A DNA stretch of 64,000 nucleotides from Schmidtea nova (Eukaryota): positions 138,136,001 to 138,200,000 of the forward strand of contig CM097882.1 of assembly GCA_044892505.1 (NCBI GenBank), given 5' to 3'. The notes beneath the pieces were generated by a model. It saw only the letters and a program-made list of their open reading frames with translations. It had not been told where the DNA came from and made no database searches. Positions 17,428-57,267 of the stretch are shown one piece after another. The position numbers were made by a program, and so were the translations under genes. Positions within the stretch are counted from its first letter, which is position 1, and each line of letters starts with the position of its first letter.

Positions 17428-17471
17428 ATTGGTCGGTCTAGACACGACTGATCAGTATAAATACTGATCAG
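17428..17471 (+). promoter_or_regulatory. Putative LTR core promoter: inverted CCAAT (ATTGG) plus TATAAA inside an 11-bp inverted repeat; second copy 42660-42703
   Basis: ATTGG at 17428; CTGATCAGTAT-AA-ATACTGATCAG at 17448-17471; AATAAA ~200 nt downstream. Confidence 0.55.
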
Positions 17472-20378: not shown

Positions 20379-20396
20379 TGGGGGCTCAGCCGGGAT
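20379..20396 (+). promoter_or_regulatory. Primer-binding site, tRNA-Pro type
   Basis: TGGGGGCTCAGCCGGGAT matches the canonical tRNA-Pro complement TGGGGGCTCGTCCGGGAT at 16/18 positions, 6 nt after the LTR-terminal CA. Confidence 0.85.
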
Positions 20397-22909: not shown

Positions 22910-25900
22910 TTGAGAAAAGGAGAAAAGAGTGTCATAATAAAACCAGCAGAAAAGAATAAAGCTACCAAGAATAATAATCAGAAAGGCCTAAAAGGAAGTA
23001 AAGCAAGGCAGATAATAATACAAAAGTCGATTATCGAAAACGATAAATTATCAGTAACAAGCAACAGTTCAAGCAACAAAGAAAATCAAGCAGAACCCGA
23101 GAGAAACCCAATAAGTGAAATAGAAGTCGACAAAACCAACAACGATTATATAGAAGAAATAGAAGACGAAGTAGAACAAGAAACAGAAAGTGACGATACC
23201 GATAACGATAGTAAAGCATCAGATAACGAATCAGCAAAAGAAACTGAGATCGACCGAAATTCGAGTGACGAACCTAACAGTGAACTAGAAACAAGAGGAA
23301 ACGAAAGTAAAATAACTACAGACAGCGGAATTGAAATGAGCGAACCCAGAGAAGAGATAAAAGACAAATTTTCCGGAGAACCGTTTAATGGAGATGCGAG
23401 TAAATTAGAAACTTTCTTAAAGGAATTTGGCATATTCGTGGAAGTATGCAAGTGGAAACCAGAAACAACTGTAAGCAGAATTCAGCTATATTTAAAAGAT
23501 AGCGCATTAGATCTATATTTGGAAGCAAAAAATGGAATTAATCCACCTACAAGTTGGTCAGCGATAAAGGACTTTTTCCAACAAACCTTCGGAATAAACA
23601 AAGTATTGAATGAGGCATTCACGGAATTCTCAATGAGGAAACAAAAGATAAATGAATCAAATGCGGTATATGCAAGCGAATTAAAAAAGTTGGCAAAGTT
23701 GATTTTCAATCAAGACAGTCCAATAAATGAAGAGTTAATGGCAGCTATCTTTGTGGGAGGATTAAGAAGACCCGACATAAGAGCGCAAGTTGGATGTCAA
23801 GGTTGTAAAACCATCGACCAAGCACTAGAAACAGCTAATAGATTTGAACTACACATGATAGGAAATGACGGTAGAATCTATTTAGCTATGGATACAGCAC
23901 AAAACGAACAAGAAGTGAACCTGAATAACCACATTCCAAATTCACAACAATTAAACCGACCACCACCGCAACGAAGGAATGAAGGGAATAAAGTATCAAA
24001 TTACGGAAATCAAAACAATTACAACCCCCAAGGACCAACGAAACAATGCAAAACATGTGGGAAATTGGGACATTGGCAACAAGAATGTTATCAGAACTTG
24101 AATTGTGGAAAATGTGGAGTAAAAGGGCATTCAGAGAGCAGAGGTTACACAATAACCTGTTTTAATTGTGGACGACCTGGACATCTATCAAGAAATTGCG
24201 GACAAAGAAGCAATCAACGAGGAAACTGGCAGAATACCGGAAACCGACAAAACTATGGAAACCAACCAACTGGTGGAAACCGACAGAATTATGGAAATCA
24301 GCCAAATAATGGAAACCAACCGGAATACGGAAACCAACCAAATAGTAATAATAATAACCAAAATAAAAATACCACTAAAGAGATACATTTAATGCAAGAG
24401 GTTCAAAGATTGACGGAGCTGATAAACAATACAAACAGAGGAAATCAGCAAACAGGTCAACAACAAATCAATATGATGAGAAAAATAGAAAGCGAAAACG
24501 AACAATTGAATCGGGAAAGTCAAGCACGACATGCTCAGGAATGGGCAAGAATACAAAGAGAAGAGGAACAAAAACAGCAAGAAAGAGAACGACAACCTCT
24601 AAGAATTAATATGATGAGAGCAACCAATCAAACAAATACCCACGAGAAAGAGACTGTACCAGAAATAAATCCAACAAACCCGAATCCAACCAACAACGAA
24701 GGCCGAAAAGAGATAATACAAGAAGATGAAGAAGCAGAAAAAGAAACAGAAAAGGAAGTAGAAAAAGAAGGGAACCAAGAAGAGAAAAGGAAACTCGGGA
24801 AAAGAGGAATGATGGTAATTTTGCCAAACAAGCACGTGTTTCGATTCCAATATAACATAAAGGAAGAAGTAGAAATATTGTTCAATAAAGTGAATGAAAT
24901 GGCTCCAGGAGTAACGAAACTGCCCAGAGAAGCATTCCTAAAAATAGAAGGTGCACCAGAAGTAAAATTGAAACTAACGGATACATGGGAAAACATGGGA
25001 GTAGTAGAGACAAAAAGAAATGTGATGGTAATCAAGGAAATAGAACCAGAAGGAATTCCATCGCCAGTGCGTCACGAAACACGAATCAGTCGAATATTTA
25101 AAGGGAAAATGATACGAAGACGGTTGGGAGAAATAGACGAGTTAGAACGAAAAATGAGAAAGGTCGAAGTAGTAGACAACAAGAGTGAATCAACACAAAA
25201 AGCTATTAAAAGTGAAACAAGACCAACGGAAAATACACCAAGCGAAACCAACCAAATAAAACACATTAACATGTTGAGAGGCCAGGCAAAGAATTTTTCA
25301 GACGACGAAGAGGATAGTGACGTCAGTAGTCTAGCAGGGGACATGCTAGACGAACCGGAAATTGAAGACAAAAAGATAGAAGTAGTAAAGACACCAGAAA
25401 CTATTCAAGTAAAAGAAGACGAGATCCAGAAATTATTAGATAATACGCTAGAAGTAATATATAATGAGGAATTCATTGACAAGAAACACTATAGAAAATT
25501 CATGAGAGCAATATTACAAATGAACTATAAAGAGTGGTTACCAGGCCGGGAAGTAGAAACACTAAGCCAATACGTAGGAAAATTATTAAAAGAACCACTC
25601 CATGAATATATAATCCTAATTGAGATAAAAACATGTTTGCCAAGGATTTGGATCAAAACTCCACTCACGGAAGATATTTATCAATGGGTAGAAGATAGAT
25701 TAGGGAGTTCATATAAAAACAAATTCCTCTATTCACAGAATGGACTAGTGAAGAAAAGGACGCATTTGATAGAAACAGGCATATGGCCAGGAGAGGTGAC
25801 AACATTATCGATATGCGATGATAAGAGAGAAGAGAACCTACAAGAAGTAGCAAAGGAAGCAAATATGTGTTTCGAGAAGAAGATAAAACCACGGTTAGAA

Positions 25901-28162: not shown

Positions 28163-28240
28163 ATAGAACCGTACATCATCAGTAAAGGAGGATGGGAAAC
28201 ATTCACAAAAACGAACCAAAAGAAAACCCAAGCCAAAAAT

Positions 28241-31200
28241 ATGAAAAGGAAATTCGAAGAGATATTGGGAGAATTGGAAAAGGAAAAGTCGGGAACAGGA
28301 AACGGGAAATCATCACTAAACTTGAGTTCTATCATTATGATGATGTTAATATGGATGATTAGTACTGACGGAGCAACAGCATTTGAAGTATTCGATTGTG
28401 ATCAAATGGCATTAGGTGAGAAATATTCACTACGAGGGACAGAACAATGTAAGGACGCAACCCCAACGGAGCTAAAAACATTAAAAAAGAGACAATTATA
28501 CCACGTATATCAGGAAGCTGAACTGATAAGAACAATGGTCAGAGAATGCAAAGTTTATAAAACCAGATTTGCTTTTTATTGTGGGCACCGCCATTATTCA
28601 GCAATCGTGATGCCAGGAACGGAAAGAGAATCGGTAATGCTGCAAGGAGAAGACTGTGAAAAATTATTTAAACATGGGGAAGTAGAGACTAGAGATAGAG
28701 TAAAGATAAGAGGAAAAACGGGAGTGATATTGCAACAAACATATTATGTAGCAGGAGCTATTACGGGAGGAGAAGGGTACTGCCAAGGAGCAACATATCC
28801 AATATTCGGAGTAGCAGCAACAAACCTAGTGGTAATAGATACGTATACAGTGGAACTAAAAACGTACGAGGCATTCTTCGATCCAACGACGGGAGAAATG
28901 AAAACTCTACCTATGTGCAAAATCGAGTCAAACACTTGTCAGACTGGTATGTCAACCCTAACCTACCAGATACGAGGAAAGGAATGTCAACTACAACTGT
29001 TAAAGGAAGCAGAATTCGATGAGATACAAGGGAAAACCTTCCAGGAGGAAGAAGAAGACGAGGCAGCAAGAGGAAAAATACTTCAAGACACAGTACGAGG
29101 AGAGAAAAAGATTGAAACACGAACACAAGAAAAGCAAATCAAAATGAGAAATACACCAACGGTACTAATTACCTCAGATGCAGATATCGGAATGAGGTTT
29201 GTAAAAGGAAAAACAGCCTTGAAATGCGGAGTAGCCATGTTGGAAACCAACTACCCCGGCATTTTCGTATCGAAACAAGAAGTACCTAGTGCGAAACGCA
29301 AAGTGCACACGAACGATGTTAAATTACACCTGTACATGAACAATAAAATGGATTTTCTATTCCATAGAGGACAAGCGTCACTACAAAAAGTGTATTACGA
29401 TTTAATTAACAACGATTGCATATTAAATAGGGAAATATTAAAGACAAAATTAGCAGTTGCAATCACAAACCCGGATTGTGCAATGCCATTATTACCATTG
29501 AGAGAAGGTCATTTTGGAAGGGTAGTCGGAGAAGTCATGTATGTATACATATGTAAAAAGACAAATGCGAAGGTAGCGACAATGACAAAATTACAACCAG
29601 GGCAGTGTACTAACGAACTAGAAATCGAATACAAAGGGAAGGTAAGATATGTGCAACCAGTGACAAGAATCATAAATCCAGTAAGCTTCGAACCAAATCC
29701 TTTCAATTGCAGCAACGCATATGGACCACTATACCAAAAACCAGACGGAAATTGGGTTATGTTTCCGTCAAGAACAGAGGTACCAGCACCAAGGGAATTT
29801 GAATTGATGCAACTATCAAAAGGACGAAAATTTAAAGACGTAGATGTAAGTAATATGGGATTCTATAGCGCAAAAGACTTAGAGGCAGCGAGGCAAAACA
29901 TACTATTTCCAGCAAGAAGGGAAGCGGTGCTATCCAGTATTGTAACAATAACAGGAGGAACAAATTACCAAGGTGGACCAAATTACGAATTATTATTGTC
30001 ACCAGCCCACTTTAAGAAGGCAACGGAAAACATGATGAAAGCGATGTGGGGAAGATTTTTAATATTTGGACAAATGATGGCAGGAATACTTGGTGTTATA
30101 CTAATTATACAAATAATACGGGTAATAATAACGCAAATGTTAGCCTGTTTTGACATCTATAAAAGAGAAAAGAAAGTAAATTGGAAATTGGTGGTAGGAT
30201 TCTTACCATTTTTGGCTAAAACAATGGTATTACACGGTCATTCAAAAGATATTCACCGAATAAAGAGACTCCTAAAAATACTGGCAAAAATGAAAGGAAC
30301 CGATGAAGAGGTGGGACGAAAATTTAAAAAGATAATGAATAACGAGCAAGCAAGACAACAACTAAAGAAAGAGAGAAAAGGACTATGGGAAAGAATGAAA
30401 GGGTACAGAACCCAAGACGATTCCAGTGACGACGATGATGATGATAACGAAGGAGGTCAAGTATTTAAAAATCAAGTACCACAGTATGTCGAAAAGAATC
30501 CAGCGGAAATGTGGAAATGTTACGCACCCCCACCAACCATGTACCAAGAACCAACACCAGGGATGAGACAAAATACAATGCAAATGATGCCGATGACAAA
30601 CATATATCCTATGATACCAGAAGACTATAGAACGAGACGGTGCAGAAGCGTAGATCCGCAAGGAGACTCACATACAATTGCAGTAATGTCATCAAACACC
30701 GGTCCAGTATTAACTACAACAATCGAAATTAACGGAAGGGAAATTGAAGCGATGATTGATACAGGAGCAAATATCTCAGCAATAGATATAAAATGGATAC
30801 CACAAGAACAAAGACGGGATATTGAGAGAACCAACGTTCACGTAATAGCATGCAGTAAAGAAGTAGTAGAAGTTGCCGGAAGATGGTGGGTAAAGATAAA
30901 ACATCAAAACACAGAAATCGAAACGTACGTAGCAGTAATACCAGCACTGAGCGTACCATGCATTATAGGCACAGATTTAATGCCAGCATTATTTAAAGAA
31001 ATAGTTATTGACCTCGGAACAATGAGATTAAAGGATAGGACAGGACAGATATGCGCAATAGAAGCAAAAGTAACAAGTTCGAAACAAATAATTGTACCAG
31101 CACGGAGAGAGAAAATATGTTTCGTAAAAATAGATCCTACAATAGAAGGTGATATGATCTTTGAACCCAGTAAAAGATTTGAAAAGAGAAAGTCGTTGCC

Positions 31201-34200
31201 AATGGCAAGGGGATTAGTGAGTGCGAATGACAACGGAGAAATCCCAATAAATGTAGTAAATTTCGATGAAGAGGATAAAATAATTTATGAAAACGAAAGA
31301 CTAGGTAAACTAACTCCAATGATAGATATCGAAATACCAATAAAAGAAGGAGTAAAAGAGGAGGAACCCACTTGGAACATTGATAGCCAACTATTAAATG
31401 AGGACCAAAAAAAACAGCTAGAAAGATTACTGATAGAATATAAAGACATATTCGCAGCATCCGATTTAGATCTAGGGACATGCGACGTCACACTACATAC
31501 GATTCCACTTACAGACGAAACGCCGATTGCGTTAAGACCATACAAGTTAGCTGAAGCGCAAAAATCAGTAGCCGAAGCAGAAGTACAGAAAATGCTAGAC
31601 GCAGAAGTAATTGAACCAAGCTGCTCACCGTGGCAATTCCCAGTTGTAATGGTGAAAAAGAAAGACGGAACACAACGATTTTGTATTGATTATCGGAGAT
31701 TAAATGCGGTAACAAAACGGGATACATACCCATTACCAGACATCAACGAGATGTTATTGACATTACAAGGAGCGGCATACTTTACATCATTAGATTTGAA
31801 AAGCGGATACTGGCAAATTAAAATGAAGGAAGAAGACAAAGAGAAAACTGCTTTCACGATCGGAAGAGACTTGTACCAATTTAGGAAAATGCCATTCGGA
31901 CTAACCAATGCGCCAGCATCATTTCAAAGATGTATGAATTTCGTTACCCACGGCATAAAACAATGCATGGTTTACATTGACGACCTACTGATCTACTCAA
32001 GCACATTTGAACAACACATCCAAGATATCAGAGATGTATTTGTTAGATTGAGACAATGGAAACTCAAGCTCAAACCATCGAAATGCGATTGGGCAAAAGA
32101 GAAAGTGACATTCTTAGGACATATTGTGTCCGCAAAAGGAAAGGAACCAGATCCCAGAAACATTGATAAAGTAAAAGAATGTCCAGTACCAAAGACGATA
32201 ACGCAGATCCAAGAATTTCTCGGATTATGCGGTTACTATAGAAAATTCATAAAGGATTACGCAGGAATTGCAAAACCAATCCAGGAGCTAGTAAAGAAAG
32301 ACGTATCGTTCATATGGGGAAGCGAACAACAAACAGCCTTCGAAACATTACGAGATAAGTTAATAACTGCACCAATATTGGTTCACCCGGATTTCAAGAA
32401 GCCATTTTTACTCGCAACCGACGCAAGTGGATATGCAGCAGGAGCAGTGTTAGGACAATATGATGACGAGGGAAAAGAGCGGGTAATCGGATATTATAGC
32501 AGAACATTCAAGAAACACGAGAAGAATTATTCAGTAACGGAAAGAGAAGCATTGGCAATAATATTAGCAATAAAACACTTTAAATATCTATTATGGGGAC
32601 ACGTTATATGCATAACCACGGATCATCAACCACTGGTATGGCTAGGACAACATAAGGAAACATCCAGCAGGTTGATGAGATGGGCGATGCAATTACAAGA
32701 ATATTCACCAGATATAAAATTCAAATCAGGAAAAGCGAATGCCAACGCAGATTGCATGTCAAGATTAACGTTTCCAGAATTAACAGACCCAGAAGTGCAA
32801 AGAATATGCATAATGATAGCAGAGGATTTGGATTTCAGCGAGTTAAAGAAAGATCAGCAAGAGGATAAAGAACTAAGACCCATCATAGAATTCCTAAGCT
32901 CACGGAATATGGATGTATTCAAAGACAATGCGGAGTTAAAAGAACACATGAGGAAATACCAACATCGATACACAATAGAAAAAGGATGGTTATTAATACA
33001 GGATGGAGAAAAACGATTAATGTGTCTGCCAAGTAATAGACGAAAAGAGATAATAACTCAATACCATGACGGAAAGTTGGGAGGACACATGTCCGATAAG
33101 AAAACATTAGATCGCATGAGACAAAAATATTATTGGCCAACAATGGACGAGGACGTAAAGGAATGGATAAAGAACTGTTTAACTTGTGCCACAAGAAAGG
33201 ATAGTGGGAAGAAATGGAAAAATCCCTTAAAACCCATGCCAATACCAGCGGAACCAATGACTACCATTGCGATGGATGTAATAGGACCATTGCCAGAAAG
33301 TTTAAACTGGAATCAATATATATTGGTAATAACGGATTATTTGACGAAATTCCCTGAAGCATTTGCGATGCCGGATCAAAAAGCAAAGACCGTAGCAAGA
33401 ATTTTAGTAGAGGAAATATGTTGTCGATACGGAACCCCGAAACAAATACTAACAGATCAAGGAACAAATTTTATGAGCGAAATATTAGATGAAGTAACAA
33501 ATTACTTCAGAATAGCCAAATTACGAACGTCACCATATCATCCGCAAACTAATGGACAAACGGAAAGATTTAACGGCACATTGATTCGAATGTTATCCAA
33601 TTATGTAAGCAAACACCAAACAGATTGGGATGAGTACATAAAGCTATGTCTAATGGCATACCGAATGTCGATACACGCAGCAACAAAATTGAGTCCATTT
33701 CAATTAATGTATGGAAGGGAATGCAATATGCCAATAGATCTTGAATATCAACCACCTTTGTCTCAATATATGGAGGAAGATGATTACGTCACCAAATTCA
33801 AAGAACGAATGCAAGAGATATGGAAGACAGCAGAACTAAACATAAAGTTTTACCAAGAAAGTTACAAGGACCTACACGATCAAAAGAAAAATGTTAAAAC
33901 AAATGATCTTAAACCCGGAGATTGGGTAATGATAGAAACCCCAGAAATAATACCAGGAACCGTTAAAAAACTACAAAGACCAGGAAAAGGCCCTTACGAA
34001 GTTATATACAAAAAGGAAAACAATGTGAAGGTAAAACTTGTTAATCGACCATTGATACGACCAATATACGTTAATACATGCAGATGTAAAAAAGTACCAA
34101 AGACAATAACCACAGCGCCAGAAGAACGAATAATAACCAGATCCCAGACAGCCAGAATGAATATGCTCAGAGCAACCAATGAAAGTACCGAAGCAGAAAA

Positions 34201-37200
34201 CAATCAACAAGAAAAAAGAAACAAGGAAATTGTACTAAAAGCCAGGGAAATAATGGGAAAATGGCATGTCAGAGACGATATATTAAGAGATATACAATTG
34301 ATAATTAGTGATTACGCAAGGGGACTACCAACAAAACCAGTCATTTCAGAACTATTGGAGAAAATTCCAGAAATACTTTCACTACAAGACATAGGAGGAC
34401 AACCAGCATTACATAACGCCATAAAATGGGGAGAAGTAGAGAGAGTAAAAGAATTTCTAAAAATCGCTAAGGAAACAAACCAACACCTTGGTTTTGGGAA
34501 TAGCGAACAAGAAACACCATTAATGGTAGCAGCCATCTACAAATCGGATAAAGCAATAATAGACCTTTTGATAAATGCCGATTTCAACTGGACGGAACGC
34601 GATAGAGAAAACAAAACAGTCTTGAATCACGCAATATGGAGCTCAAATCAGATAATGCTCAAACAAATAATCGAGAAGGCCACTTGGGAAATAGACGAAC
34701 TGATCAAAGGTGATATAATCAAGGAGGCAATAAAAATCGGTAACTGCAAAACAATACGCAAGCTAATAAAGTGGAAAAGATCCGAAAATGATACATGGGT
34801 ATTAAATATAAACGAGGTATACAGTGAAGGACAAAACGCGTTATTACAATTCCTATTAAAATTCGTCTGTGATCAGAAAACACTGTTAACGCTATTAGAT
34901 AGAGGAAATATCATAATGTCCAAAAACAAAGAGGAGTGTAAATTCAAAAGTGAAAAAGAAGCATTATTCAGGAATATTAGGGAATGGTGTACAAAATCGC
35001 TAACCAAGACGATAACTTACAAAGATATATCCAATTTTCAAGACAAATACAAAACGGTGGAGGAGGAGTATGACAAACTAATAGACATATTAAACCACCC
35101 CGAAAGATGCAAACAATTCCTATGTCGAAAGGAAAGAGAAAGCAAAAGGAAATTTACACCACTTTTCAGCGCAGAGGTACCTTATCAAGAAAGGTTAGAT
35201 GCGATACAGGACAAAGCAAAAAAACTATTACCAGAATTCGAAAATTCTAAACATACACTGGAGATACTCGGAGCAATTGTGGAAAAGATACACGCATATG
35301 CGGAAGGAACCTACAATGAAAACGATATGATGCTCATAAAAAGAGAAATGCCAGTGACTTTCTTATTAACAAAGAATGGAGTATTGCCAATACATAGAGC
35401 CTTACGAGCAGGAAAAGATAGGAGGGTAGTCGAAATTGCACGGTTGATGCAAGATTGCGGAAGTGACATGAACATGAAAGATAAAAAGGGAGATACCCTC
35501 ATGATATTCGCAGCAAGAGCGAACACAAAAACCCGAGTGTTACAGGAACTGTACGAAGCAGGTGCAGGACTCATGGGAAGAACGAACAAAGACAGCTCAA
35601 TACTAGACGTAGCGTTGTTAACGCACAATTGGGAGGTAATAAACTTTATAAAAACAATCACAAATCAGGAGGAAATAGAATACCTTACAAGGATAGTTAA
35701 AAAAGCTAGCGTACATTCCATGATGCATAACGCTGAACTAACCGAAGCAATACTCAATTGGATGAACCCAAACACCAATGAACCAGCATTCAGGATCAAC
35801 GAGTTCATGGAACAAGGCCAAAATTTGTATATAAAGTGTGCATTAATAATAAACAAATGGCCAAAGATAATAGACATCTTCATGAGAAGAAAAGATTTGC
35901 GATTCACAAACAACCCAAAGGAAACAGAACGTACGGACAAATGGAAAGAACTAATGAAAACGTACCTTAATAATTGGATAAAAGCCAAGAAAGAGATTCT
36001 AGATTGTAAATTAACCGATAAGGAAATACCTAAGCAGGCAGTAACACAAGAATATGAAGCAAGTATACTCACAACCATAACGTATGAAAAAATGATAGAA
36101 GCAATTAATGTCGAGGACGACATTTTCAACGACCAAAGGGGAGGCGACAATACAGGAAACGACGACGATAGTACTCGAGAAAATCCAGAGGATCATGAGT
36201 TATCAGATGAAGAGGACAGTGAAGAGAAAGGAAGGGACACAGAGAAAAATGATAAGAAAAATGAATTTGGGAAACAAAGAAACAACAACTATAAAAATAA
36301 AAACGAAGCAAAAAGAACAAGCTACAAACAAACAATAAATCCATTCTTTAAACCAGAACTATTATTACTAACGGTAATCATGACCTTAATTAGTCCCACT
36401 CAAGGAATGATATGTGAAGAAAGAACGACAATACAAATTGGAAACGCAAAAGGAATCGAACGAGTATGTTGGTCAAAAAAGGACAAAATATCGGGACAAA
36501 ATAGTCCAATGGATTGCAGGATCTCAGAATACGAACAAGAAATCATAGAGATCGATGACCTAGAGCTAGATACTTGGTACAGAATGTGCACCGTTCGGAA
36601 ACCAAAGGATCCGAGATCACATAAGACAATTGCATGTGCAAACTACCTAACACCCAAAATAACCATAACAGTACAGCAGACATCCAAAGGAGACTACGCC
36701 GTAGGAAAGTGTGGAAAAACAGAGACCCAAGGAACAAAAAACAAAAAACCCCAGACAATAGATAGACGAACAACGCCAACTATACGAATTACCATAGACA
36801 GGCCCGAAGCAAGAGTAACCACAAATGAAACCAAAAGAGTGACCTACCAAACAGAATTACTATGTTTAGCACTCATATTAACAATGTTAAAACGGTTAGA
36901 AGAAGGGATAGACATTGACACAATGGCAGTAACAGAGATGAACGACACCCAAAACACCAACCCAAAGTGTTGGGCCAGAAGCAACGAAGAAATTGGCGTA
37001 AGCGAAATAAAGACGAGTCGGAAAAGGAAAACAAATAAAGTAACCAAGATATCAGAAGTAAAAGCAGACAGGACGTATGAACTATGTTTACTAGAAAAAG
37101 AAAGACACAAGAAAGGAACGACAATTTGTAAAACATTTCAACCTGGGGAAACAATAAAGTTCATAAGACGAGGAAGAAAAAATATACGCACCAAACGGAG

Positions 37201-38299
37201 AACAACTATAATGTTAGAGTTAACCGGGATAGAACCGGACGTCAAAGGCGTATGCTGGAAGAAGCAGGAAAAGAAAACAAACCAGAATACACCGCCGCAA
37301 TGTCGAACAAACAGAGGAACAACCACAATACAGATAGAAGGGTTAGAAAGTAATCAAACGTACGAAATATGCCTGATCAGGAAGAGCGACAAAATAACAG
37401 TAAATGAACTGGAATGCAAAATATATAAAACACCCAGCAGAACAAGAATTGGAAAGACAACGCGAAAAAGCAGAAGACAACGGAACAAAGGAAAAGCGAG
37501 GTATACCACTACTTTTGAACCTAATGGACAACAGAAAAACCAAGAAATACAAATAAGAACCGAAAAGAATACTACAGCAACTCTTATACTATGGAGAATA
37601 GACAATAAAACGTTAGAAATATGTTGGGCAGTAGTTCAGGAACAAAAAGAAAGACAGCCACGATCCTGCGAAAACGTAAAAGGAAAAGAAGAAATGAGTA
37701 TCAAAAATCTGAAATTTAATAGAGAATACGAGATATGTGCGGTAGAAAAGACGGACATATTGGGAAATCAGCAGGAAAGATGCGAAACGTACTACACACC
37801 GGTAAACTCAACGTCCAAAGGGAAAGTGAGAAAACTCGAATTTAAAGAATTAAGTCAGACAACGAAACAAATGGACGCAGAACAAGTAGTAATAGACCCT
37901 TACGCAAGATGGACGCCGGAAGAAGTAATTAAAGAAGTTAAAAGAAAACAACAAGAACGAGAACAACTACTAAATAAACTAAAGGGACAATACGGACCAA
38001 TGATTAACCAGAGTGAAATTACGAAGATGGACGTAAACAAACAAGTTAGAGAACTAATTGGTCTAGGAATACTAGCAGCAACTATTCCAGTAATAACAGT
38101 ATTATTAATAATATGGATATATGATGTATTCAACAAGAAACCAATAACACATTGGCCAGATATAAAAATTATGAACTACAGAATAGAATTACCGGAAGAA
38201 GTACAGAAAGAATTTCAAAGGAGGACGAAAGGCAAGGAATTTTGGAGACAAATAGAAGATGAGGAGCGATACGAAGGAAAGACAGTGATGGTGATATAG
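28241..38299 (+). CDS. pol: 3352-aa polyprotein: Env-like glycoprotein, protease, RT, RNase H, integrase, ankyrin repeats, FN3-like type I membrane protein
   Basis: MIDTGAN (30758), YIDD (31973), LLATDASG, HDGKLGGH...CLTC, MDVIGPLP/TDQGT/NGQTERFN, GKGPY, ankyrin motifs, and several hydrophobic segments. Confidence 0.95.
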   Translation: MKRKFEEILGELEKEKSGTGNGKSSLNLSSIIMMMLIWMISTDGATAFEVFDCDQMALGEKYSLRGTEQCKDATPTELKTLKKRQLYHVYQEAELIRTMVRECKVYKTRFAFYCGHRHYSAIVMPGTERESVMLQGEDCEKLFKHGEVETRDRVKIRGKTGVILQQTYYVAGAITGGEGYCQGATYPIFGVAATNLVVIDTYTVELKTYEAFFDPTTGEMKTLPMCKIESNTCQTGMSTLTYQIRGKECQLQLLKEAEFDEIQGKTFQEEEEDEAARGKILQDTVRGEKKIETRTQEKQIKMRNTPTVLITSDADIGMRFVKGKTALKCGVAMLETNYPGIFVSKQEVPSAKRKVHTNDVKLHLYMNNKMDFLFHRGQASLQKVYYDLINNDCILNREILKTKLAVAITNPDCAMPLLPLREGHFGRVVGEVMYVYICKKTNAKVATMTKLQPGQCTNELEIEYKGKVRYVQPVTRIINPVSFEPNPFNCSNAYGPLYQKPDGNWVMFPSRTEVPAPREFELMQLSKGRKFKDVDVSNMGFYSAKDLEAARQNILFPARREAVLSSIVTITGGTNYQGGPNYELLLSPAHFKKATENMMKAMWGRFLIFGQMMAGILGVILIIQIIRVIITQMLACFDIYKREKKVNWKLVVGFLPFLAKTMVLHGHSKDIHRIKRLLKILAKMKGTDEEVGRKFKKIMNNEQARQQLKKERKGLWERMKGYRTQDDSSDDDDDDNEGGQVFKNQVPQYVEKNPAEMWKCYAPPPTMYQEPTPGMRQNTMQMMPMTNIYPMIPEDYRTRRCRSVDPQGDSHTIAVMSSNTGPVLTTTIEINGREIEAMIDTGANISAIDIKWIPQEQRRDIERTNVHVIACSKEVVEVAGRWWVKIKHQNTEIETYVAVIPALSVPCIIGTDLMPALFKEIVIDLGTMRLKDRTGQICAIEAKVTSSKQIIVPARREKICFVKIDPTIEGDMIFEPSKRFEKRKSLPMARGLVSANDNGEIPINVVNFDEEDKIIYENERLGKLTPMIDIEIPIKEGVKEEEPTWNIDSQLLNEDQKKQLERLLIEYKDIFAASDLDLGTCDVTLHTIPLTDETPIALRPYKLAEAQKSVAEAEVQKMLDAEVIEPSCSPWQFPVVMVKKKDGTQRFCIDYRRLNAVTKRDTYPLPDINEMLLTLQGAAYFTSLDLKSGYWQIKMKEEDKEKTAFTIGRDLYQFRKMPFGLTNAPASFQRCMNFVTHGIKQCMVYIDDLLIYSSTFEQHIQDIRDVFVRLRQWKLKLKPSKCDWAKEKVTFLGHIVSAKGKEPDPRNIDKVKECPVPKTITQIQEFLGLCGYYRKFIKDYAGIAKPIQELVKKDVSFIWGSEQQTAFETLRDKLITAPILVHPDFKKPFLLATDASGYAAGAVLGQYDDEGKERVIGYYSRTFKKHEKNYSVTEREALAIILAIKHFKYLLWGHVICITTDHQPLVWLGQHKETSSRLMRWAMQLQEYSPDIKFKSGKANANADCMSRLTFPELTDPEVQRICIMIAEDLDFSELKKDQQEDKELRPIIEFLSSRNMDVFKDNAELKEHMRKYQHRYTIEKGWLLIQDGEKRLMCLPSNRRKEIITQYHDGKLGGHMSDKKTLDRMRQKYYWPTMDEDVKEWIKNCLTCATRKDSGKKWKNPLKPMPIPAEPMTTIAMDVIGPLPESLNWNQYILVITDYLTKFPEAFAMPDQKAKTVARILVEEICCRYGTPKQILTDQGTNFMSEILDEVTNYFRIAKLRTSPYHPQTNGQTERFNGTLIRMLSNYVSKHQTDWDEYIKLCLMAYRMSIHAATKLSPFQLMYGRECNMPIDLEYQPPLSQYMEEDDYVTKFKERMQEIWKTAELNIKFYQESYKDLHDQKKNVKTNDLKPGDWVMIETPEIIPGTVKKLQRPGKGPYEVIYKKENNVKVKLVNRPLIRPIYVNTCRCKKVPKTITTAPEERIITRSQTARMNMLRATNESTEAENNQQEKRNKEIVLKAREIMGKWHVRDDILRDIQLIISDYARGLPTKPVISELLEKIPEILSLQDIGGQPALHNAIKWGEVERVKEFLKIAKETNQHLGFGNSEQETPLMVAAIYKSDKAIIDLLINADFNWTERDRENKTVLNHAIWSSNQIMLKQIIEKATWEIDELIKGDIIKEAIKIGNCKTIRKLIKWKRSENDTWVLNINEVYSEGQNALLQFLLKFVCDQKTLLTLLDRGNIIMSKNKEECKFKSEKEALFRNIREWCTKSLTKTITYKDISNFQDKYKTVEEEYDKLIDILNHPERCKQFLCRKERESKRKFTPLFSAEVPYQERLDAIQDKAKKLLPEFENSKHTLEILGAIVEKIHAYAEGTYNENDMMLIKREMPVTFLLTKNGVLPIHRALRAGKDRRVVEIARLMQDCGSDMNMKDKKGDTLMIFAARANTKTRVLQELYEAGAGLMGRTNKDSSILDVALLTHNWEVINFIKTITNQEEIEYLTRIVKKASVHSMMHNAELTEAILNWMNPNTNEPAFRINEFMEQGQNLYIKCALIINKWPKIIDIFMRRKDLRFTNNPKETERTDKWKELMKTYLNNWIKAKKEILDCKLTDKEIPKQAVTQEYEASILTTITYEKMIEAINVEDDIFNDQRGGDNTGNDDDSTRENPEDHELSDEEDSEEKGRDTEKNDKKNEFGKQRNNNYKNKNEAKRTSYKQTINPFFKPELLLLTVIMTLISPTQGMICEERTTIQIGNAKGIERVCWSKKDKISGQNSPMDCRISEYEQEIIEIDDLELDTWYRMCTVRKPKDPRSHKTIACANYLTPKITITVQQTSKGDYAVGKCGKTETQGTKNKKPQTIDRRTTPTIRITIDRPEARVTTNETKRVTYQTELLCLALILTMLKRLEEGIDIDTMAVTEMNDTQNTNPKCWARSNEEIGVSEIKTSRKRKTNKVTKISEVKADRTYELCLLEKERHKKGTTICKTFQPGETIKFIRRGRKNIRTKRRTTIMLELTGIEPDVKGVCWKKQEKKTNQNTPPQCRTNRGTTTIQIEGLESNQTYEICLIRKSDKITVNELECKIYKTPSRTRIGKTTRKSRRQRNKGKARYTTTFEPNGQQKNQEIQIRTEKNTTATLILWRIDNKTLEICWAVVQEQKERQPRSCENVKGKEEMSIKNLKFNREYEICAVEKTDILGNQQERCETYYTPVNSTSKGKVRKLEFKELSQTTKQMDAEQVVIDPYARWTPEEVIKEVKRKQQEREQLLNKLKGQYGPMINQSEITKMDVNKQVRELIGLGILAATIPVITVLLIIWIYDVFNKKPITHWPDIKIMNYRIELPEEVQKEFQRRTKGKEFWRQIEDEERYEGKTVMVI
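28331..30231 (+). other. Env-like domain: chuvirus/Monjiviricetes-type fusion glycoprotein with signal-like and transmembrane segments
   Basis: IIMMMLIWMI...ATA|FEVFDC; YSL...C; ECKV...R...YCG..HYS; AG...G.G.C.G..Y; CG...ETNYP; LYMNNKMDF; C...REILKTKL; GEVMYVYIC; CTNEL; ILFPARREAVL; TM FLIFGQMMAGILGVILIIQII. Motif and Cys order recognised by eye. Confidence 0.75.
34390..35660 (+). other. Ankyrin-repeat region downstream of integrase
   Basis: GQPALHNAIKWGE, ETPLMVAAIY, KTVLNHAIW, VLPIHRALRAG, GDTLMIFAARAN, SSILDVALLTHN. Confidence 0.8.
36353..38130 (+). other. C-terminal membrane protein: signal-like segment, four Cys-containing FN3-like repeats, TM anchor
   Basis: PELLLLTVIMTLISPTQG; four repeats of the form xCW...(C)...I..L....Y.(I/L/M)C...C; TM LIGLGILAATIPVITVLLIIWIY. 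Confidence 0.65.
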
Positions 38300-38424
38300 G
38301 AGGCGGGATATGACTGTAAATAATAGTGTAAATAACAATGCATTACCGTAATAGTATGGGTATCGATATTATAAAAATATAAAAAGAGAAATCGAGAAAA
38401 CGATTAATGTATATAATTTAGAAA

Positions 38425-38781
38425 ATGAACGAACAGGAAGAAATAGCAGAAACTACTATGGCTATGCGATGGAAAGCCCAGTGTGACATGTTAATACGAA
38501 CAATCAACTCACTACAAAATCAGTTAATTGAGAAACAGAATTTGTTATCCGAAAGTTATAATAATAGTTTTGAACAACTCCACAGAATCGAGGAGCAACA
38601 GAGATTGATAACGCAACTTACCAGAGAGAATCAAGTGATGAGCGACATAAATCAGAGACAAGCAATAGAGATAGACCGTTTAACAATGGGGGAGATAGAA
38701 GAAGCAGAGGATGGATGGACAAATTGGGCAATAAACAGGTCGGAAAATGACCCAGAACCAGATTCAACAAACGAGCCGTAG
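38425..38781 (+). CDS. Small coiled-coil accessory protein (118 aa)
   Basis: ATG-initiated with heptad pattern; TTTAG acceptor-like site 3 nt before the ATG. Confidence 0.6.
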   Translation: MNEQEEIAETTMAMRWKAQCDMLIRTINSLQNQLIEKQNLLSESYNNSFEQLHRIEEQQRLITQLTRENQVMSDINQRQAIEIDRLTMGEIEEAEDGWTNWAINRSENDPEPDSTNEP

Positions 38782-38872
38782 ATAAATAAAGCGAAAAATT
38801 GTAAATATGTAAAAACAAAAACAAGAAAAATCAAAAAATAGATAACAAATCAAGTGTATATATCATTGTAGA

Positions 38873-40256
38873 ATGAATACAGAAGGAAAAGCCGAAGAGC
38901 GGATAATCGAAATTTTGAGAGCCGAGAACAGGAAATGGAGTCAGAGACTCACTTGTGTAAATTGTAAAAACATAATATTGAAACCAAGACAAACCCTATG
39001 CGGATGCAGAGTATGTACCAAATGCATACACGAGTTAAGTATGAAAAGACCACCAGAATGTCCAGAATGCAAAGAAGGACAAATAAAATTCGAAGAAACC
39101 GGACCAGATAGAGCAACTCAGAGAGAAATCATGAACACGAAAACCGAATGTATAAATCAACCATGTATATGGCAAGGACAAATACGCGATCTCGAGAACC
39201 ATCTGGAGAACTGCGAAGAGAAGAGAACTGAATGTAACAAATGCCAACAAAAAATAACTATAAAGAATAAAGAGCAGCACAAAGATGAATGTAAAGAAGA
39301 GGAAAGTCTATGCGAATATTGTGGAACTCGAGAAACGAGGAGAAAGATCGAAGAAGAACACCTGAATGTAAAAGAGGAGAAAGTATGTAGACAATATGTA
39401 GGAATATGTTCAAACGAATGCGAGATAACGGTAGAAGTAAAATTACAAGAACATTGGAAAGTGTGCACGGAGAAACCAAGGGAATGTCCTTATAACAAAC
39501 AGGGATGTATGGAGAAAAGAACGCAAAAAAACCATGAAACAACATCTGGAGGAAGCATTGCTAAAGCATGCGGAAATGACAAACGAAGCAACAAAAGAAA
39601 CCGAACAAACAATCAAAAAATTAGAAAGAGAAATAGAGTCACACAAGATAATGGTAAACCTACTGTTGGAAACCAGAGAGCAATTCGAACTAACACGAGA
39701 AAAGATGGAGGAAAAGATAAAAGCTATCGAAGAATTGGCTAAAGGAATGAAAATCCAGTACAACAAACTCACCCAGGATACCGAGGAAAAGTTGCCAATC
39801 GCACCCTATGTGTGGAAAGTGACAGATTTTAGAGACAAATTAACAGAGGCCAGAAATATGACGAAAACAGCAGTAATAAGCCCACCATTTTATTTATGGA
39901 GAAACGGAGCTAAAGTGAGATTGAAGCTATACCCAAATGGAGACGGAAGAGGACGAGGAACACATGTGTCAATATTTTTCTCGCTATGTAAAAGAGAATA
40001 CGACGACCTAGTAGAATGGCCCTTGAAAGTAGGAGTCATTATAAGAATCAGAAGTGTAGCAAAACCAGTGGAAAAATTCTTTGAGACAGAGAAACATGCG
40101 AGTACGAGCGAGAAACCAACCACAGAATGTGGATTAGCAGCGGGAGAACCGATGTTTATAACGAAAGAAAGCTTATGGGAACGATTATATGCAGACACCC
40201 TATACATAGAAATGGAAAGGAATGAGAAAGCGGATAGAAAAGGATGGTTGACGTAA
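38873..40256 (+). CDS. TRAF: Intronless TRAF-family protein (RING, TRAF Zn fingers, coiled coil, MATH) with one frameshift in an A7 run
   Basis: CVNC...CGCRVCTKC...CPEC RING; ECINQPCIWQG...LENHLENC Zn fingers; YVWKVTDF...SPPFY...KLYPNGDGRGRGTHVSIFF...YDDLVEWP MATH. Removing one A from 39525-39531 joins the two ORFs as EKRTQKTMKQHLEE. Confidence 0.9.
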
Positions 40257-40372
40257 CAAGAGAAGTGATCATGTAAATAATATGTACAGTTAAATACCCA
40301 AAAATTATTATATAAACAAAAATAACTGATATATAAACCGATTAAAAATTTTTTTTCTCTGTAATTATAGCA

Positions 40373-41434
40373 ATGGGAAATATCGAAGTATGCTTACAGG
40401 AAATTACGATGCATCAAGCAGAAGCGATTAGCGATCATCTAGAACAGATCGAAATATGGGTCAATGCATATTATAGAAAGCAAGAGGAGATAGAGAGACA
40501 AGCCGAATTATTAAAAGAAGCGGAAAGATCAAGTCAAAGAAGTCGAGAAAAAATAGAAGAAGTATACAAAATGCTAAAACAACAAAAGGAATATTACCAG
40601 GGAATGATGAAAGAGCGACGAGAGGAAAGAGACAGACAGCAGATGGAAGCTGAACACAAGATGTATTCGATTACAGAACAAGCAAGATACTGGAAGAAAG
40701 AAGCGAAAGAATCTTACGAAAAAGCTAGAGAAATAATAGAAAGGACAGCTTATAGTGATGACTGGAAATTATATAAAGAGATCGACGAATTAAAAGACGA
40801 ATTAGAGAAAAAAATCAACCAGGAAGTGTTAAATAAAAGATGGAATACAAAAAGACAGCAATTTATCCGCGAACAAGCAAAGAAAATTAAAGGACTAACC
40901 TATCAAGTTCAAAGAATGGGAGAAGAACTAGCTAATCAAGAACAACTGAAAACTATGCTCACCGGAATATGGAATCAGAAAGAAGAAGAGATGAAGAGAG
41001 ATATAAATGGTTATCAAGGAGTGATTACCCAGAAGAAAATAGAGCTAAAAAGAACCAGAGAAAGGTTAAAGGAAGAGAAACAAAGTTATGAGGAAAATTT
41101 AACGAATTTGATGAAAGAAAACGAAGAATTGAAACAGAAACGAGTAACAGTATCAGTAATACCCAAAGAAGCAAGTATAACGGCAGCCGTAACAAAAATG
41201 ATGAAGGAAGACGAACAAAAGACAAAAGTAATCGAATTAGAGAAGCAAATAGAAACATTAACAGAACAAGCAAATTACCTAGAATATTTGCTGGACGAGG
41301 AGATCCAGATATCTCACATGTATCGAGATGAAGTCGAAATGTGGAGGAGCAGGGTTGTTTGGATACCACTCCCCACGAACCAGGTAGAACCTCAGGACGA
41401 AGGTTTCTACGAACCAAACGAGACGATGGTGTAA
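40373..41434 (+). CDS. Long coiled-coil (SMC/myosin-tail-like composition) accessory protein (353 aa)
   Basis: E/K/Q/R-rich heptads; polypyrimidine tract plus TAG acceptor-like site 2 nt before the ATG. Confidence 0.7.
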   Translation: MGNIEVCLQEITMHQAEAISDHLEQIEIWVNAYYRKQEEIERQAELLKEAERSSQRSREKIEEVYKMLKQQKEYYQGMMKERREERDRQQMEAEHKMYSITEQARYWKKEAKESYEKAREIIERTAYSDDWKLYKEIDELKDELEKKINQEVLNKRWNTKRQQFIREQAKKIKGLTYQVQRMGEELANQEQLKTMLTGIWNQKEEEMKRDINGYQGVITQKKIELKRTRERLKEEKQSYEENLTNLMKENEELKQKRVTVSVIPKEASITAAVTKMMKEDEQKTKVIELEKQIETLTEQANYLEYLLDEEIQISHMYRDEVEMWRSRVVWIPLPTNQVEPQDEGFYEPNETMV

Positions 41435-41516
41435 ATAAAGCGGAAAATATATTTTTGTAAATAATTGTATGAAATGTAGTGTCAAATTGTATTGATCTAT
41501 CTGTAAAGAAAACAGT

Positions 41517-42089
41517 ATGAAAAAGCTCAGAATACCGATATTCCTATACCTAATAACAATCACCCTACAAAGAGAAGATCTTCAACTCACAGAGAAGGAG
41601 CTACGAGCCCTACCCGAGAAAACCTATCAAGAACTAGATAAACTAATCAGCGAAGCAACACAAGAAATCACCCAACTTCAACAGATAACATCAGACAACC
41701 CAAACGATGAAAAATTTCAACAGGTCCTATATGAACATCGAATCAAATTGAAAACAATCAGAAAAACCCTAATAGAAGGTCGAGAACCCATAAAAAGCTT
41801 AGCCCAAGCAGAGATAGAATATCAAGAAAAATGGATCATCGCAATTATAATAATCCTTGCACTCAGCGTGACCATTATCGCGATCACAATCCTCATAACA
41901 TCATACCGAGTGAAGATCCTAAAACAAAAACAAGTCATCCTGAATCGAACAACAATACAAGACATCAGAACCCAAAAGCGAATGAGAAAACACCTAAACC
42001 GAATCCAAAGCCACTATGAACTACGAACAATCAGCGAAAGAACCCCAATCCAATCCAATACCAATCATGAAATCAAAGAGCTTGTGTAA
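41517..42089 (+). CDS. Small membrane protein: N-terminal hydrophobic segment, coiled coil, TM, basic tail (190 aa)
   Basis: MKKLRIPIFLYLITITLQ; TM WIIAIIIILALSVTIIAITILI; CAG 1 nt before the ATG. Confidence 0.75.
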   Translation: MKKLRIPIFLYLITITLQREDLQLTEKELRALPEKTYQELDKLISEATQEITQLQQITSDNPNDEKFQQVLYEHRIKLKTIRKTLIEGREPIKSLAQAEIEYQEKWIIAIIIILALSVTIIAITILITSYRVKILKQKQVILNRTTIQDIRTQKRMRKHLNRIQSHYELRTISERTPIQSNTNHEIKELV

Positions 42090-43671
42090 AACTGATAAAT
42101 TACATTCACTTTATGTATGATCCACGTACAATTAACAATAATATGACTTTGTGCTTACGTATAAAATCTATCACCTTATGTGATTCTATGTGTACATGTA
42201 AATTGACATTTATCTGCTTAATTTTTATGTATGATGATATAGGTGTAAATGTATAATTAATTGCTGGACGCAATTTTAGGGGTCCCCGAGTGATGTTGGG
42301 CCAGCCAAATAGAGGGAACAGTGAAATAAAAGTAGATTAATTAAAACAAAAAAGAGAAAAATAAGGTAAAAAGGGGAATATTTATTTATTAAAAGAAAGG
42401 AATAATATAGTAAAAATATAGATAAACTAAGTACAAGCTATAAATAAAAATAAATGAATTGCTAGATATTAACGGGCCCAGGAGACATCTAAAAACAAAT
42501 AAAATACAAATAATAATAATTAAAACCAAATAAAAGTACTTGTTATTGAATAATTGTTTTTGAAACCCGGACCTCCAAGGAAGAATACAATCTAAAAAAT
42601 AAAAATTAATTAGAATCAAAAACAATAATTAAAAACCACCATGAAGCTGGCCGAACCTGATTGGTCGGTCTAGACACGACTGATCAGTATAAATACTGAT
42701 CAGATTTTTCATAAAAAGAGAATAGAGACGTTGTTAGACTGTGTAAAAACTTAGACTTTGTTAGAATATAGATTTTAGACTTGTGACTTTGTTTGAGACA
42801 AAAATTTAGACTTGTGTTCAGACTAAAAATTTACATTAGATTGCACATTGCCCCGACGACGATCACCGTTTAGACCGATTTTGATCAATAAATTTTCAGA
42901 ATTCAATTGAGGTATTCTTGGTATATTTACGTTTATTGTTTGATATCGTTGTATTCATATGTCATTATCATATTATAATTTATTAGTTATCTCATTATGA
43001 TTTATGTTATATTTAAACTATTTAAACTATCATATTAATCTTGCGCCGTTGGGAGCTTTAGGTTCCCAAGGTGTCCGTCCGTGGCGTGGTGCTCGAGGGC
43101 TCCACACACGGTAAAGTAATAAATAACAAAACATAATTTTATTAGTGATGGTTGAGATTTGCACATGGGACACCCAACAAATCCGGGGAATTATTTTCTG
43201 ATCGTTTTGGCTACGGAGGGGACGATAATTTTTTGATAAAGCTTAAAGATATGAAAGAATTTGTTAACCGGGAGGAGGCACAATTTTTCACCCTCACCAC
43301 AGCGCAGCTGTTTAATAAACGTCTAATAAACCTTAGGAAAATTATGTCGACCGCATTTGATACAAAAGAGCGTTTTCGAATAAGCTAGGGATACATGACG
43401 TGAGAGAGCTTCCGTTTTGAGGTATCAATATTTTGAAAATCCAAGCAGACAAATCACCAATTCTTCGACTATAAAATTGATCGTAAACAGATAAATCTAA
43501 GTAGATACGAGAGTAATGTATACCGTAACAAGCAACAGTTTTTTCTTGATTTCAGCTAAGGTCTAAGGGGAAGGCAAATAATAAGGGTATCACGATGAGA
43601 GATAACATTTACTATGATTAATTATTGATGTAAATTGTAACTATTATCAAATTCAGCATCGTTTTGGAATC

Positions 43672-44139
43672 ATGACTAAGCATAGATACACTATCAAAAA
43701 ACGACAAGAACGAGCCCGAGTTAGCCCATTAAAGCCGGCTCCTTTCGAGATTTTACAGCAAATCCATCAAAAAATGTGGGCATGGCGCCGAGAGCTTGAA
43801 ACCGCCTGTCCATTTACATTATGGGACCATCCACGGCACCACGTATGGTACCGGGGATGCGCTAGTTGGCCAATTATTCCAGACGAGGAATGCGAATCAT
43901 GGCACGCCGCCTGGTTCGTCCTGATGTTGGATAAGGGAGGATTCCCGAAATGTGTGATATATTGGGGGTTCATTCCAGCCTCTACCTTCAAGGAATTGGG
44001 GTTCAAGTTCAATACCGCAATACGACCCCTTCGAGAAGCTGAGAGGATCCGTTTTCAGCAGGCCTCGTCCAATATCAACACAAATTTGCAAATCAGATCG
44101 ATATTTTCATATCGAGGAAAAATGACCGAAGATGAATAG
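43672..44139 (+). CDS. Second copy of LTR-encoded 155-aa protein
   Basis: Identical to 18440..18907. Confidence 0.6.
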   Translation: MTKHRYTIKKRQERARVSPLKPAPFEILQQIHQKMWAWRRELETACPFTLWDHPRHHVWYRGCASWPIIPDEECESWHAAWFVLMLDKGGFPKCVIYWGFIPASTFKELGFKFNTAIRPLREAERIRFQQASSNINTNLQIRSIFSYRGKMTEDE

Positions 44140-44460
44140 TTGAATCAATGGCCACATGTTTTTTTTAATTTAATAAATGTTTTAAAAAAGGTCTGAAGTG
44201 TCTCATTTTGTTAATAGTGTTGTCATGTAGATTTAGTATTCTAGTTGTTATAGTCATTAGGAAATTCATTTAATAATCTCAAACTAGTTCAATAAATCCT
44301 TTGAGCCTTCAATAAATAGATAGTTAATTAATTTTGCAACAAACTTAATAATTAAAAACATTAGTATGCATCTCGTTTAATGATAGTAAATAATAGACTA
44401 AATAAAATAACATTGTTGACAGGTCCTCCAGCGAATTTATCGTTATAATATTCAGACAAC

Positions 44461-45045
44461 ATGCCGACTTCAGAAAATTCCAAGAAAATCATGGGACAAA
44501 TCCAAGAGAGGAAGTTGAGGGACCAGCAGCGTCAGATCAAGCGACTCACGGTCGCCAATGATGAATTGAGAGCGAAGTGGTTCTCACCCGAACAAATGAA
44601 GGACCAGTCGAAAAAACTTGAGCGAATGCAGGAAGCACTGGCCACAACCAAATTGGAACTAGATGCCGTCCAGCGAGAACTCCGAAATTGCCTAAACGCA
44701 GTAACAAGAAGTTACATCGACTCCGAATTACGAGCGCTAATCCGGCCGATCACGGCTCAGCGCTGGATACAATGCACTCACCAAGATGTCGCTTGCGGGA
44801 CGGAAGAGGGAATCATCATGGCCCCCTCTCTTACAACGGAAGATTTGCCTATTTTTCTCAGTGATCCCCCGAGAACAATAGCGCCAGCACCGGTCATAAA
44901 CCAACAGCTTCGAAAACACCGAATGGGATCGCGACAGCGTCGTCGTCGCCGAGAATTTGCAAAGCGCCTGGACGAACAAATCCACCACTTGAACTCCTTA
45001 ACCGAAGCGGAGTTGATTCAGGAGATTAGTCTGGAATTCGCTTAG
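44461..45045 (+). CDS. Second copy of LTR-encoded 194-aa Arg-rich coiled-coil protein
   Basis: Identical to 19229..19813. Confidence 0.65.
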   Translation: MPTSENSKKIMGQIQERKLRDQQRQIKRLTVANDELRAKWFSPEQMKDQSKKLERMQEALATTKLELDAVQRELRNCLNAVTRSYIDSELRALIRPITAQRWIQCTHQDVACGTEEGIIMAPSLTTEDLPIFLSDPPRTIAPAPVINQQLRKHRMGSRQRRRRREFAKRLDEQIHHLNSLTEAELIQEISLEFA

Positions 45046-45684
45046 GAAAACATCCATGTAAAATAACAACCTGTTTTTAGTATTTTAATAAAAGTATTTC
45101 TGTGTAAATTTTGTCTCTCATCGGGTGATGTTACTAAATGAAATAAAATAACAAAAATGAAATCATCGAAATAAAAAAATATCGCCCCGAAATTTTCTCA
45201 AACCGACCGTTTATACGCAGGGACTGATTAATTACATTGTAGATCAATTAAGGAAAGTCGTTAAGAAAGGCGTGTGATAGAGCATAAGGATATGTAGTAC
45301 AAAATTTAGTAGAGCGAACATCCATAGAATGAAAATGCGTAAGACCTTCTATCGGCAGCAAGGACCCGAGGGAAGATAAATGGGGAGTAGTTTTGGCAAC
45401 AAAGCTCACCTGCCCATCATTTTTCCCCCACCGTATGCAGTACCAACTTGACTAGTAGGGAATAGTCAAGGGCATACGCGTGTAGTAGTCATGTTATGTA
45501 TGGTTATGGGCGTGGAATCCCTAGTATACATATTCATCAATAGTCGTTCAATTAATGATTAACTATTTATTTGAATTACTTAAAACCCACCCATAACCCC
45601 AGCATTATTTATCTGTAATGGTTTATCAATTTGCGTTTGATATGCACACAAAGGATACACAGCAGTGTAAGGATAAAGTCCGAT

Positions 45685-57259: not shown

Positions 57260-57267
57260 TGGTGACT

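Follow-up and report, generated by a model that had tools for sequence, protein, structure and literature searches.

In HIV-1, a major 5′ splice donor is used with several alternative acceptors. The closest described relatives of the element analysed here are the Burro/GYPSM1 elements of planarians, which are giant, Gypsy-like and longer than 30 kb (PMC6431247). Our subject is a Burro-like Gypsy element with env in a 64,000-nucleotide stretch of Schmidtea nova DNA (GCA_044892505.1, contig CM097882.1, forward-strand positions 138,136,001 to 138,200,000), hereafter the window. The element measures 28,543 bp from outer long terminal repeat (LTR) end to outer LTR end, and its 3′ end is a cassette of four closely spaced genes, A to D. 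A preliminary description had proposed that this cassette is expressed as a polycistron, by spliced-leader (SL) trans-splicing or by cis-splicing from an upstream donor to several acceptors. We find that alternative cis-splicing from the leader of the element is recorded in DNA for two further genes, E and F, which lie inside the LTR. Probably genes A to D are expressed in the same manner, as nested subgenomic mRNAs in which one LTR leader is cis-spliced to alternative acceptors and which likely share a 3′ end in the 3′ LTR.

The route by which up to eight genes are expressed from one promoter decides whether the TRAF and RING cargo of the element can be made without the replication genes. An anti-death gene of Burro1 reportedly helps to sustain stem cells and regeneration in planarians (PMC13465017). 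The element type was already known; what our analysis adds is the junction copies for this family, the leader donor at 17680 and a motif anchored to stop codons. The literature examined held no account of Burro splicing or of an expression scheme, and the main Burro papers and their supplements (Lee 2026, Grohme 2018, Jurka 2007, Rossi 2014) may already describe one.

Targeted genome searches found exactly two integrated elements that lack the donor-to-acceptor segment in both LTRs. In the first (L100/L101), position 17679 is joined to 19224. The 1544 nt that are lost begin with GT and end with AG, gene E is skipped, and the F ATG lies 5 nt downstream of the join. The second element carries another leader type, whose own AG|GT is joined 4 nt before the E ATG. 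An AG at this distance is present in 2 of the 4 fully covered LTRs of the second leader type; the copy in the window lacks it, its nearest YAG being 15 nt upstream of the E ATG. An equivalent donor position has been joined to two different acceptors, that of E and, with E skipped, that of F, on different leader types. Both elements are flanked by 4-bp target site duplications (TSDs) and have LTRs that are 99.9% identical. Loss from both LTRs together with TSDs is what is expected of a reverse-transcribed spliced genomic RNA, because both LTRs copy the 5′ end of the RNA.

The donor is preceded by a short leader and an inferred promoter (Table 1), which we compared with those of a sister family (75-80% nucleotide identity) and of a third family (33-56% protein identity). 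Over the LTR's first 1.4 kb, only the terminus and the CCAAT-plus-TATA block are significantly similar between the sister family and the window. The TATA box of the window LTR is kept in 28/28 cases. The block is also found in the third family, where a short leader follows and a candidate AG|GT donor lies 107-108 nt after the TATA box in 29 of 30 loci. Leader region 17487-17780 exists as two unrelated types (59 and 67 exact unspliced matches, counts that omit patterns with T second after a non-G). The two types are swapped among copies that are otherwise 97-98% identical, and both end in AG|GTATT. The GT at 17680 is kept in 59 LTR matches and replaced by the F exon in 2. AATAAA stands just 5′ of the donor in leaders of the first type and of the third family, not in the second type.

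Hence cis-splicing to multiple acceptors, one of the two routes proposed at first, has direct support from the E and F junction copies, but its donor is 17680 rather than 17879, 20107 or 21440. The GT at 17879 is conserved in 26/26 copies, but no junction from it was found, and the single match without G is a point variant. The one sister-family copy examined lacks the GT of 20107; for candidate 21440, 56 genomic copies were counted. Just upstream of 17879, at 17806-17878 (43038-43110), lies a near-invariant two-hairpin element (z -3.8), followed by this conserved donor-like GT and AATAAA. It is unchanged even in an LTR of 84% identity and is possibly a packaging or dimerisation signal.

In the cassette, each gene is preceded by a spacer that ends in a likely splice acceptor. 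The spacers measure 125, 91, 116 and 82 nt, exactly the lengths first given, and their AGs (38420-21, 38870-71, 40369-70 and 41514-15) do lie 3, 1, 2 and 1 nt before the ATG; the AG of the RING open reading frame (ORF), at 20696-97, is likewise 3 nt before its ATG. All five are YAG. As a background, YAG occurs 1-3 nt upstream of 60 of the 631 sense ATGs of the element (9.5%). For base-shuffled spacers, the product over the four is 3e-5 for YAG and 1.4e-3 for plain AG, with a 1-3 nt window that was picked after the data had been seen. YAG and ATG are unchanged in 29/29 other copies, which are about 98% identical and too alike to show selection.

Cassette gene order is the same in all three families. 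In the two diverged families, 7 of 8 cassette starts have a YAG 1-7 nt upstream and one has an AAG at 2 nt. Over all families, which are not independent, this amounts to YAG within 1-7 nt at 11 of 12 cassette starts, against a 7-nt background of 21-25%. The RING ORF has its YAG 3 nt 5′ of the ATG in all three. The AG-to-ATG distance varies by family (1/3/1 for B, 3/3/7 for A, 1/2/2 for D), a drift that is expected for an AUG-free leader. The YAG excess over shuffles and its retention in diverged families support the original reading of these AGs as splice acceptors. Between families, identity is 72-87% in spacers 1 and 2, versus 49% (35/72) and 33% (11/33) at four-fold sites, with the spacer values inflated by gapped alignment of AT-rich DNA. 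Spacer 1 is 87% and 76% identical in the other two families; a conserved RNA structure in it finds no support, with 1 of 23 pairs covarying.

The extension of leader splicing from E and F to A to D is drawn from this shared anatomy. Transcription would begin at the inferred LTR promoter, near 17487. The leader donor at 17680 would then be joined to the acceptor before each cassette gene, 20.7-23.8 kb away, and all subgenomic RNAs would share a common 3′ end in the 3′ LTR. Each RNA would translate its first ORF, because the leader contains no AUG. Finally, a protein bound 3′ of each internal stop, at the motif described below, might act at translation termination.

Several observations weigh against this reading. 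Both junctions show 2-4 nt of microhomology, so that reverse-transcriptase template switching is a formal alternative. We consider template switching unlikely as the origin of both junctions, because the two events are independent, use an equivalent donor and each end beside a start codon. Of three other internally deleted copies, the two inspected to the base are microhomology joins without GT-AG, a difference that speaks for splicing at E and F; for the third the breakpoint pair is known less finely. Genome searches on candidate donors found no junction copy in the sister or the third family. Third-family donors gave no match and then one chance match outside any LTR; sister-family donor guesses gave only variants or no match.

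The genome also holds no junction of the leader to A, B, C or D in our searches, for which a matched positive count is at hand for A only (70). Such copies are not expected, because these spliced RNAs lose the primer site at 20379. Four contig sets yielded no GT-AG joint and no SL-like loose end among the matches listed. These sets are insensitive: the known E and F junctions do not show up among those matches either, and they resemble genomic DNA in that coverage extends into the host flank. Furthermore, splicing to the cassette would have to pass over several nearer acceptors with introns of 21-24 kb, gene D of the sister family has AAG instead of YAG, and in 27 of 29 third-family loci an ATG stands close to the inferred start of the leader.

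The spacers share a second feature, the motif TGTAAATA. All 6 of its occurrences in the element fall inside the four spacers or at their margins; 15 kb of coding sequence contain none. It begins 14-21 nt after the stop codon in 11 of 11 cassette spacers from the three families; spacer 4 of the third family, available as partial sequence, is without it in that part. By comparison, among 12 ends of RING, D, E and F a single one has it in the 70 nt that follow the stop, at 28 nt. We take TGTAAATA to fit the Pumilio consensus, and the distance of 14-21 nt presumably corresponds to the downstream edge of a terminating ribosome. Our leading reading, which we put below even odds, is a PUF/Pumilio-type site that acts at termination on messages in which kilobases of RNA lie beyond the stop, for example by shielding such long 3′ untranslated regions (UTRs) from nonsense-mediated decay. 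The fixed distance makes UGUAAAUA a concrete candidate for a termination-linked RNA signal. A CFIm poly(A) element was considered and is disfavoured. An upstream UGUA is missing from planarian poly(A) sites and CFIm59/68 were not detected (PMC5068929); for the former reason TGTAAATA is unlikely to be a 3′-end signal.

Poly(A) signals themselves are at chance level. AATAAA near the stops, to which the preliminary description had pointed, is present in 2 of the 4 window spacers, with shuffle probabilities of 0.28-0.78 per spacer. Over three families it occurs in 7 of 12 spacer sequences, in counts that match shuffles, and it is missing from spacer 1 in all three. These figures concern canonical AATAAA; variant hexamers may be present. 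RING, E and F have AATAAA at or past their stops.

This bears on a retroelement operon, in which cleavage and polyadenylation would occur in every spacer and the host SL would be trans-spliced to the downstream gene, alone or beside cis-splicing. We judge it unlikely. In its favour, the planarian host trans-splices: the published SL1 exon motif (PMC10899757 supplement) has 1,688 genomic matches and its reversed control 0. Genes in flatworm operons lie up to 300 bp apart, which covers the spacing seen here, and acceptors common to cis- and trans-splicing are reported (PMC12582326). Spliced RNA of Cer1 in Caenorhabditis elegans occurs with and without SL1 (PMC3315495). Moreover, TGTAAATA marks just those stops that have another gene close behind, which would be expected of an operon signal.

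However, AATAAA is at chance and absent from spacer 1 throughout, and spacers of 75-125 nt leave little space for a 3′ UTR plus an intercistronic stretch. The analogy first drawn with worm operons holds for closely spaced genes on the same strand with acceptors, but the roughly 100 nt of those operons run from poly(A) site to acceptor and not from the stop; in Schistosoma mansoni the median of this distance is 99 bp (PMC12582326). Exact-match searches, which are weak, found no case of the SL joined to A, B, C, D or the third-family A, despite many SL-capped genomic copies. None of the 30 SL1 flanks read, out of 1,688, comes from the element. A working upstream cis donor would compete, and cis-splicing is rare at operon acceptors (PMC12582326). 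Flatworm SLs end in AUG, and it had been cautioned that this AUG would be out of frame at three cassette sites. This is no real obstacle, since out-of-frame SL AUGs exist in host SL-bearing sequences, where long ORFs start 5 nt after the SL (L109, L119). Spacing for an in-frame SL AUG is not enriched at the cassette starts (3 of 12). We rejected a start of Gag at an SL AUG joined to the AG at 22818-19, because the frame then meets a stop and is not preserved in the sister family.

A dual system is equally doubtful. Here cis-splicing would serve the LTR genes and an SL-resolved operon the cassette, and UGUAAAUA would be a flatworm signal, so far unrecognised, by which the end of one cistron is linked to the processing of the next.

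The SL1 matches led to an observation of a different kind. In about 29 of 30 loci (L107-L136, 0.56-36.9 Mb of one contig), the SL1 exon lies directly 3′ of a shared repeat of about 150 bp, often beside a TAA microsatellite. It continues into differing mRNA-like sequences and not into the SL intron; the SL RNA gene is not among the 30 loci read. It appears that a repeat family has captured SL-capped host mRNAs en masse and forms a fossil library of trans-spliced 5′ ends. This is possibly more novel than the cassette finding.

Leader cis-splicing could also combine with separate 3′ ends, each message being polyadenylated separately in the spacer that follows its gene, a layout that may be likened to the adenovirus late unit. 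AATAAA in 7 of 12 spacers and at or after the RING, E and F stops speaks for such ends, as does the planarian use of one-mismatch hexamers (PMC5068929). Yet the AATAAA counts equal those of shuffles, and the base composition does not fit: cleavage sites in planarians are rich in U (PMC5068929), the spacers in A (T 19-36%). We regard separate ends as quite improbable.

Least credible of all is an absence of splicing, with internal promoters or ribosome reinitiation and with the YAGs as relics of captured host mRNAs: a word resembling TATAAAA in spacer 1 of all three families, some 50 nt upstream of the ATG, a motif anchored to the stop codon as a translation-linked signal would be, and the internal promoter of foamy viruses (PMC7828637) agree with it, but the YAGs persist at saturated synonymous divergence, with T/C exchange inside YAG between families, and a like arrangement at E and F serves as a junction.

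Leader cis-splicing of A to D, our preferred reading, is set out on the element in Table 1. The element was delimited by self-alignment, which gives a 4211-bp direct repeat of 99.93% identity, and the bounds of the true LTRs within it were set by other copies: nearly all of their 5′ or solo LTRs begin at 17062 or at most 3 nt off.

Table 1. Features of the Burro-like element, in window coordinates.
Feature	Position	Strand	Remarks
5′ LTR	17062..20372	+	3311 bp, TG...CA; promoter, leader exon, donor and genes E and F inside
CCAAT-like box and TATA box (inferred promoter)	17428..17462	+	inferred start ~17487
AUG-free leader exon (start inferred)	17487..17679	+	~190 nt; AATAAA 17655-17660
Leader splice donor GT	17680..17681 (42912-13 in 3′ LTR)	+	AG|GT
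LTR gene E	18440..18907	+	155 aa; without Pfam match
LTR gene F	acceptor AG 19222-23, ATG 19229, to 19813	+	194 aa
Primer-binding site	20379..20396	+	directly 3′ of 5′ LTR; identical in sister family; presumably tRNA-Pro-like
RING-finger ORF	acceptor AG 20696-97, ATG 20701, to 21162	+	153 aa; PF13920 E 1e-11
Gag (zinc knuckle), then fusion glycoprotein-PR-RT-RH-IN-ankyrin polyprotein	23336..38299	+	PF00098, PF24664, PF00077, PF00078, PF17917, PF00665, PF12796
Spacer 1	38300..38424	+	TGTAAATA at 38315 and 38327; acceptor TAG ending 38421
Gene A	38425..38781	+	118 aa; no Pfam match above cut-off; coiled-coil-like by inspection
Spacer 2	38782..38872	+	TGTAAATA at 38800; acceptor TAG ending 38871
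Gene B, TRAF-like (RING, zinc fingers, MATH)	38873..40256	+	PF22486/PF21355; frame broken ~39.5 kb here
Spacer 3	40257..40372	+	TGTAAATA at 40272; T-tract; acceptor TAG ending 40370
Gene C	40373..41434	+	353 aa; coiled-coil-like by inspection
Spacer 4	41435..41516	+	TGTAAATA at 41456; acceptor CAG ending 41515
Gene D	41517..42089	+	190 aa; hydrophobic N-terminus, one likely transmembrane segment (inspection)
3′ LTR	42294..45604	+	AATAAA 42887-92, likely common poly(A) signal

Several features of Burro elements are found here: a size slightly below 30 kb, the order protease, reverse transcriptase, RNase H and integrase (PR-RT-RH-IN), an in-frame env, and MATH/TRAF and ankyrin cargo. The mononegavirus-like fusion glycoprotein (PF24664, E 9e-68) is encoded 5′ of the protease, and the nearest database proteins are 37-39% identical over env. 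BIR, BCL2-like and dUTPase domains have no Pfam match at E<0.01 in the window; their presence is reported to vary between Burro types. There was no Rfam match, and no viral contig matched the MATH ORF.

The copy in the window is damaged twice. An in-frame stop at 28160-62 lies between gag and env, in a gag-env-pol stretch that is a single frame in the 2 other copies examined, and the frame of the TRAF gene is broken near 39.5 kb. Gene B is otherwise one TRAF-like gene, of 458-460 amino acids in 27 of 30 copies; relatives carry the full domain set, and the top PDB matches of the third-family protein are TRAF5/3/2/6 chains. Amino acid identities in the other two families are 72% and 52% for gene A, 76% and 47% for gene C and 60% and 33% for gene D. 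No homolog of gene C was found among 5156 candidates of similar length.

Near-identical genomic copies of the gene A start number at least 70. The third family has at least 150 scored gene A matches, and many of its copies have a shortened LTR-to-LTR distance. A sister-family element is inserted in the gag of a third-family element (L091-L094 / L104-L106). Before the 5′ LTR of the window copy, at 16163-17061, stand an extra 899 bp of 3′ internal sequence (the end of C, spacer 4, D with its stop and the 3′ UTR) with no matching TSD, and the copy L085 has a similar extension of about 150 bp. Both extensions suggest aberrant plus-strand priming or recombination. An ATG-less open frame at 22877-23335, 149-174 codons long, bounded by a stop and found in all three families, lies directly 5′ of and in frame with gag; a non-AUG or spliced N-terminal gag extension is possible.

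Other elements share the window. On the minus strand, 469-6005 holds ORFs for HSP90 fragments, ubiquitin and a Pao-type DUF1759 between the two members of a direct repeat pair of about 1 kb (619-1608, 5174-6170), likely an LTR element with captured pieces of host genes. An ordinary 6.5-kb Gypsy element with LTRs of about 920 bp occupies 52980-59457, also on the minus strand. A Tc1/mariner-type transposase ORF lies at 50692-51639, and a near-perfect 193-bp inverted repeat at 6739-7125 adjoins a stretch of N.

With Burro/GYPSM1, the element shares the planarian host, a length of about 30 kb, a CCHC Gag, a mononegavirus-like fusion glycoprotein between Gag and protease, ankyrin repeats, a MATH/TRAF domain and accessory ORFs (PMC6431247). 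Unlike in Burro, TRAF is a complete, separate gene 3′ of pol, within a cassette of four genes.

The likeness to SL operons of nematodes and flatworms (PMC12582326) lies in genes on the same strand less than 300 bp apart, an acceptor before each downstream start and the host SL1. Unlike in such operons, poly(A) signals are not above chance, no SL junction was found, and in genomic copies the genes E and F are fused to a cis donor that lies upstream of them. Cer1 of C. elegans is also a Gypsy element, and its spliced RNA can carry the host spliced leader, but it makes one spliced product and is a single-ORF element, not a multi-gene cassette (PMC3315495).

Complex retroviruses (HIV-1; foamy virus, PMC7828637) have in common with our element one 5′ donor, several acceptors and a short non-coding leader on each subgenomic RNA, features that for A to D we infer. 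In contrast to these viruses, the element is of Gypsy type, and its donor and two of the target genes lie inside the LTR, 5′ of the primer site. Its accessory genes do not overlap and stand behind separate spacers of 75-125 nt, more than 20 kb from the donor. If our reading is true, a Gypsy element would perform alternative splicing of retroviral grade over more than 20 kb, a convergent route to the plan of complex retroviruses.

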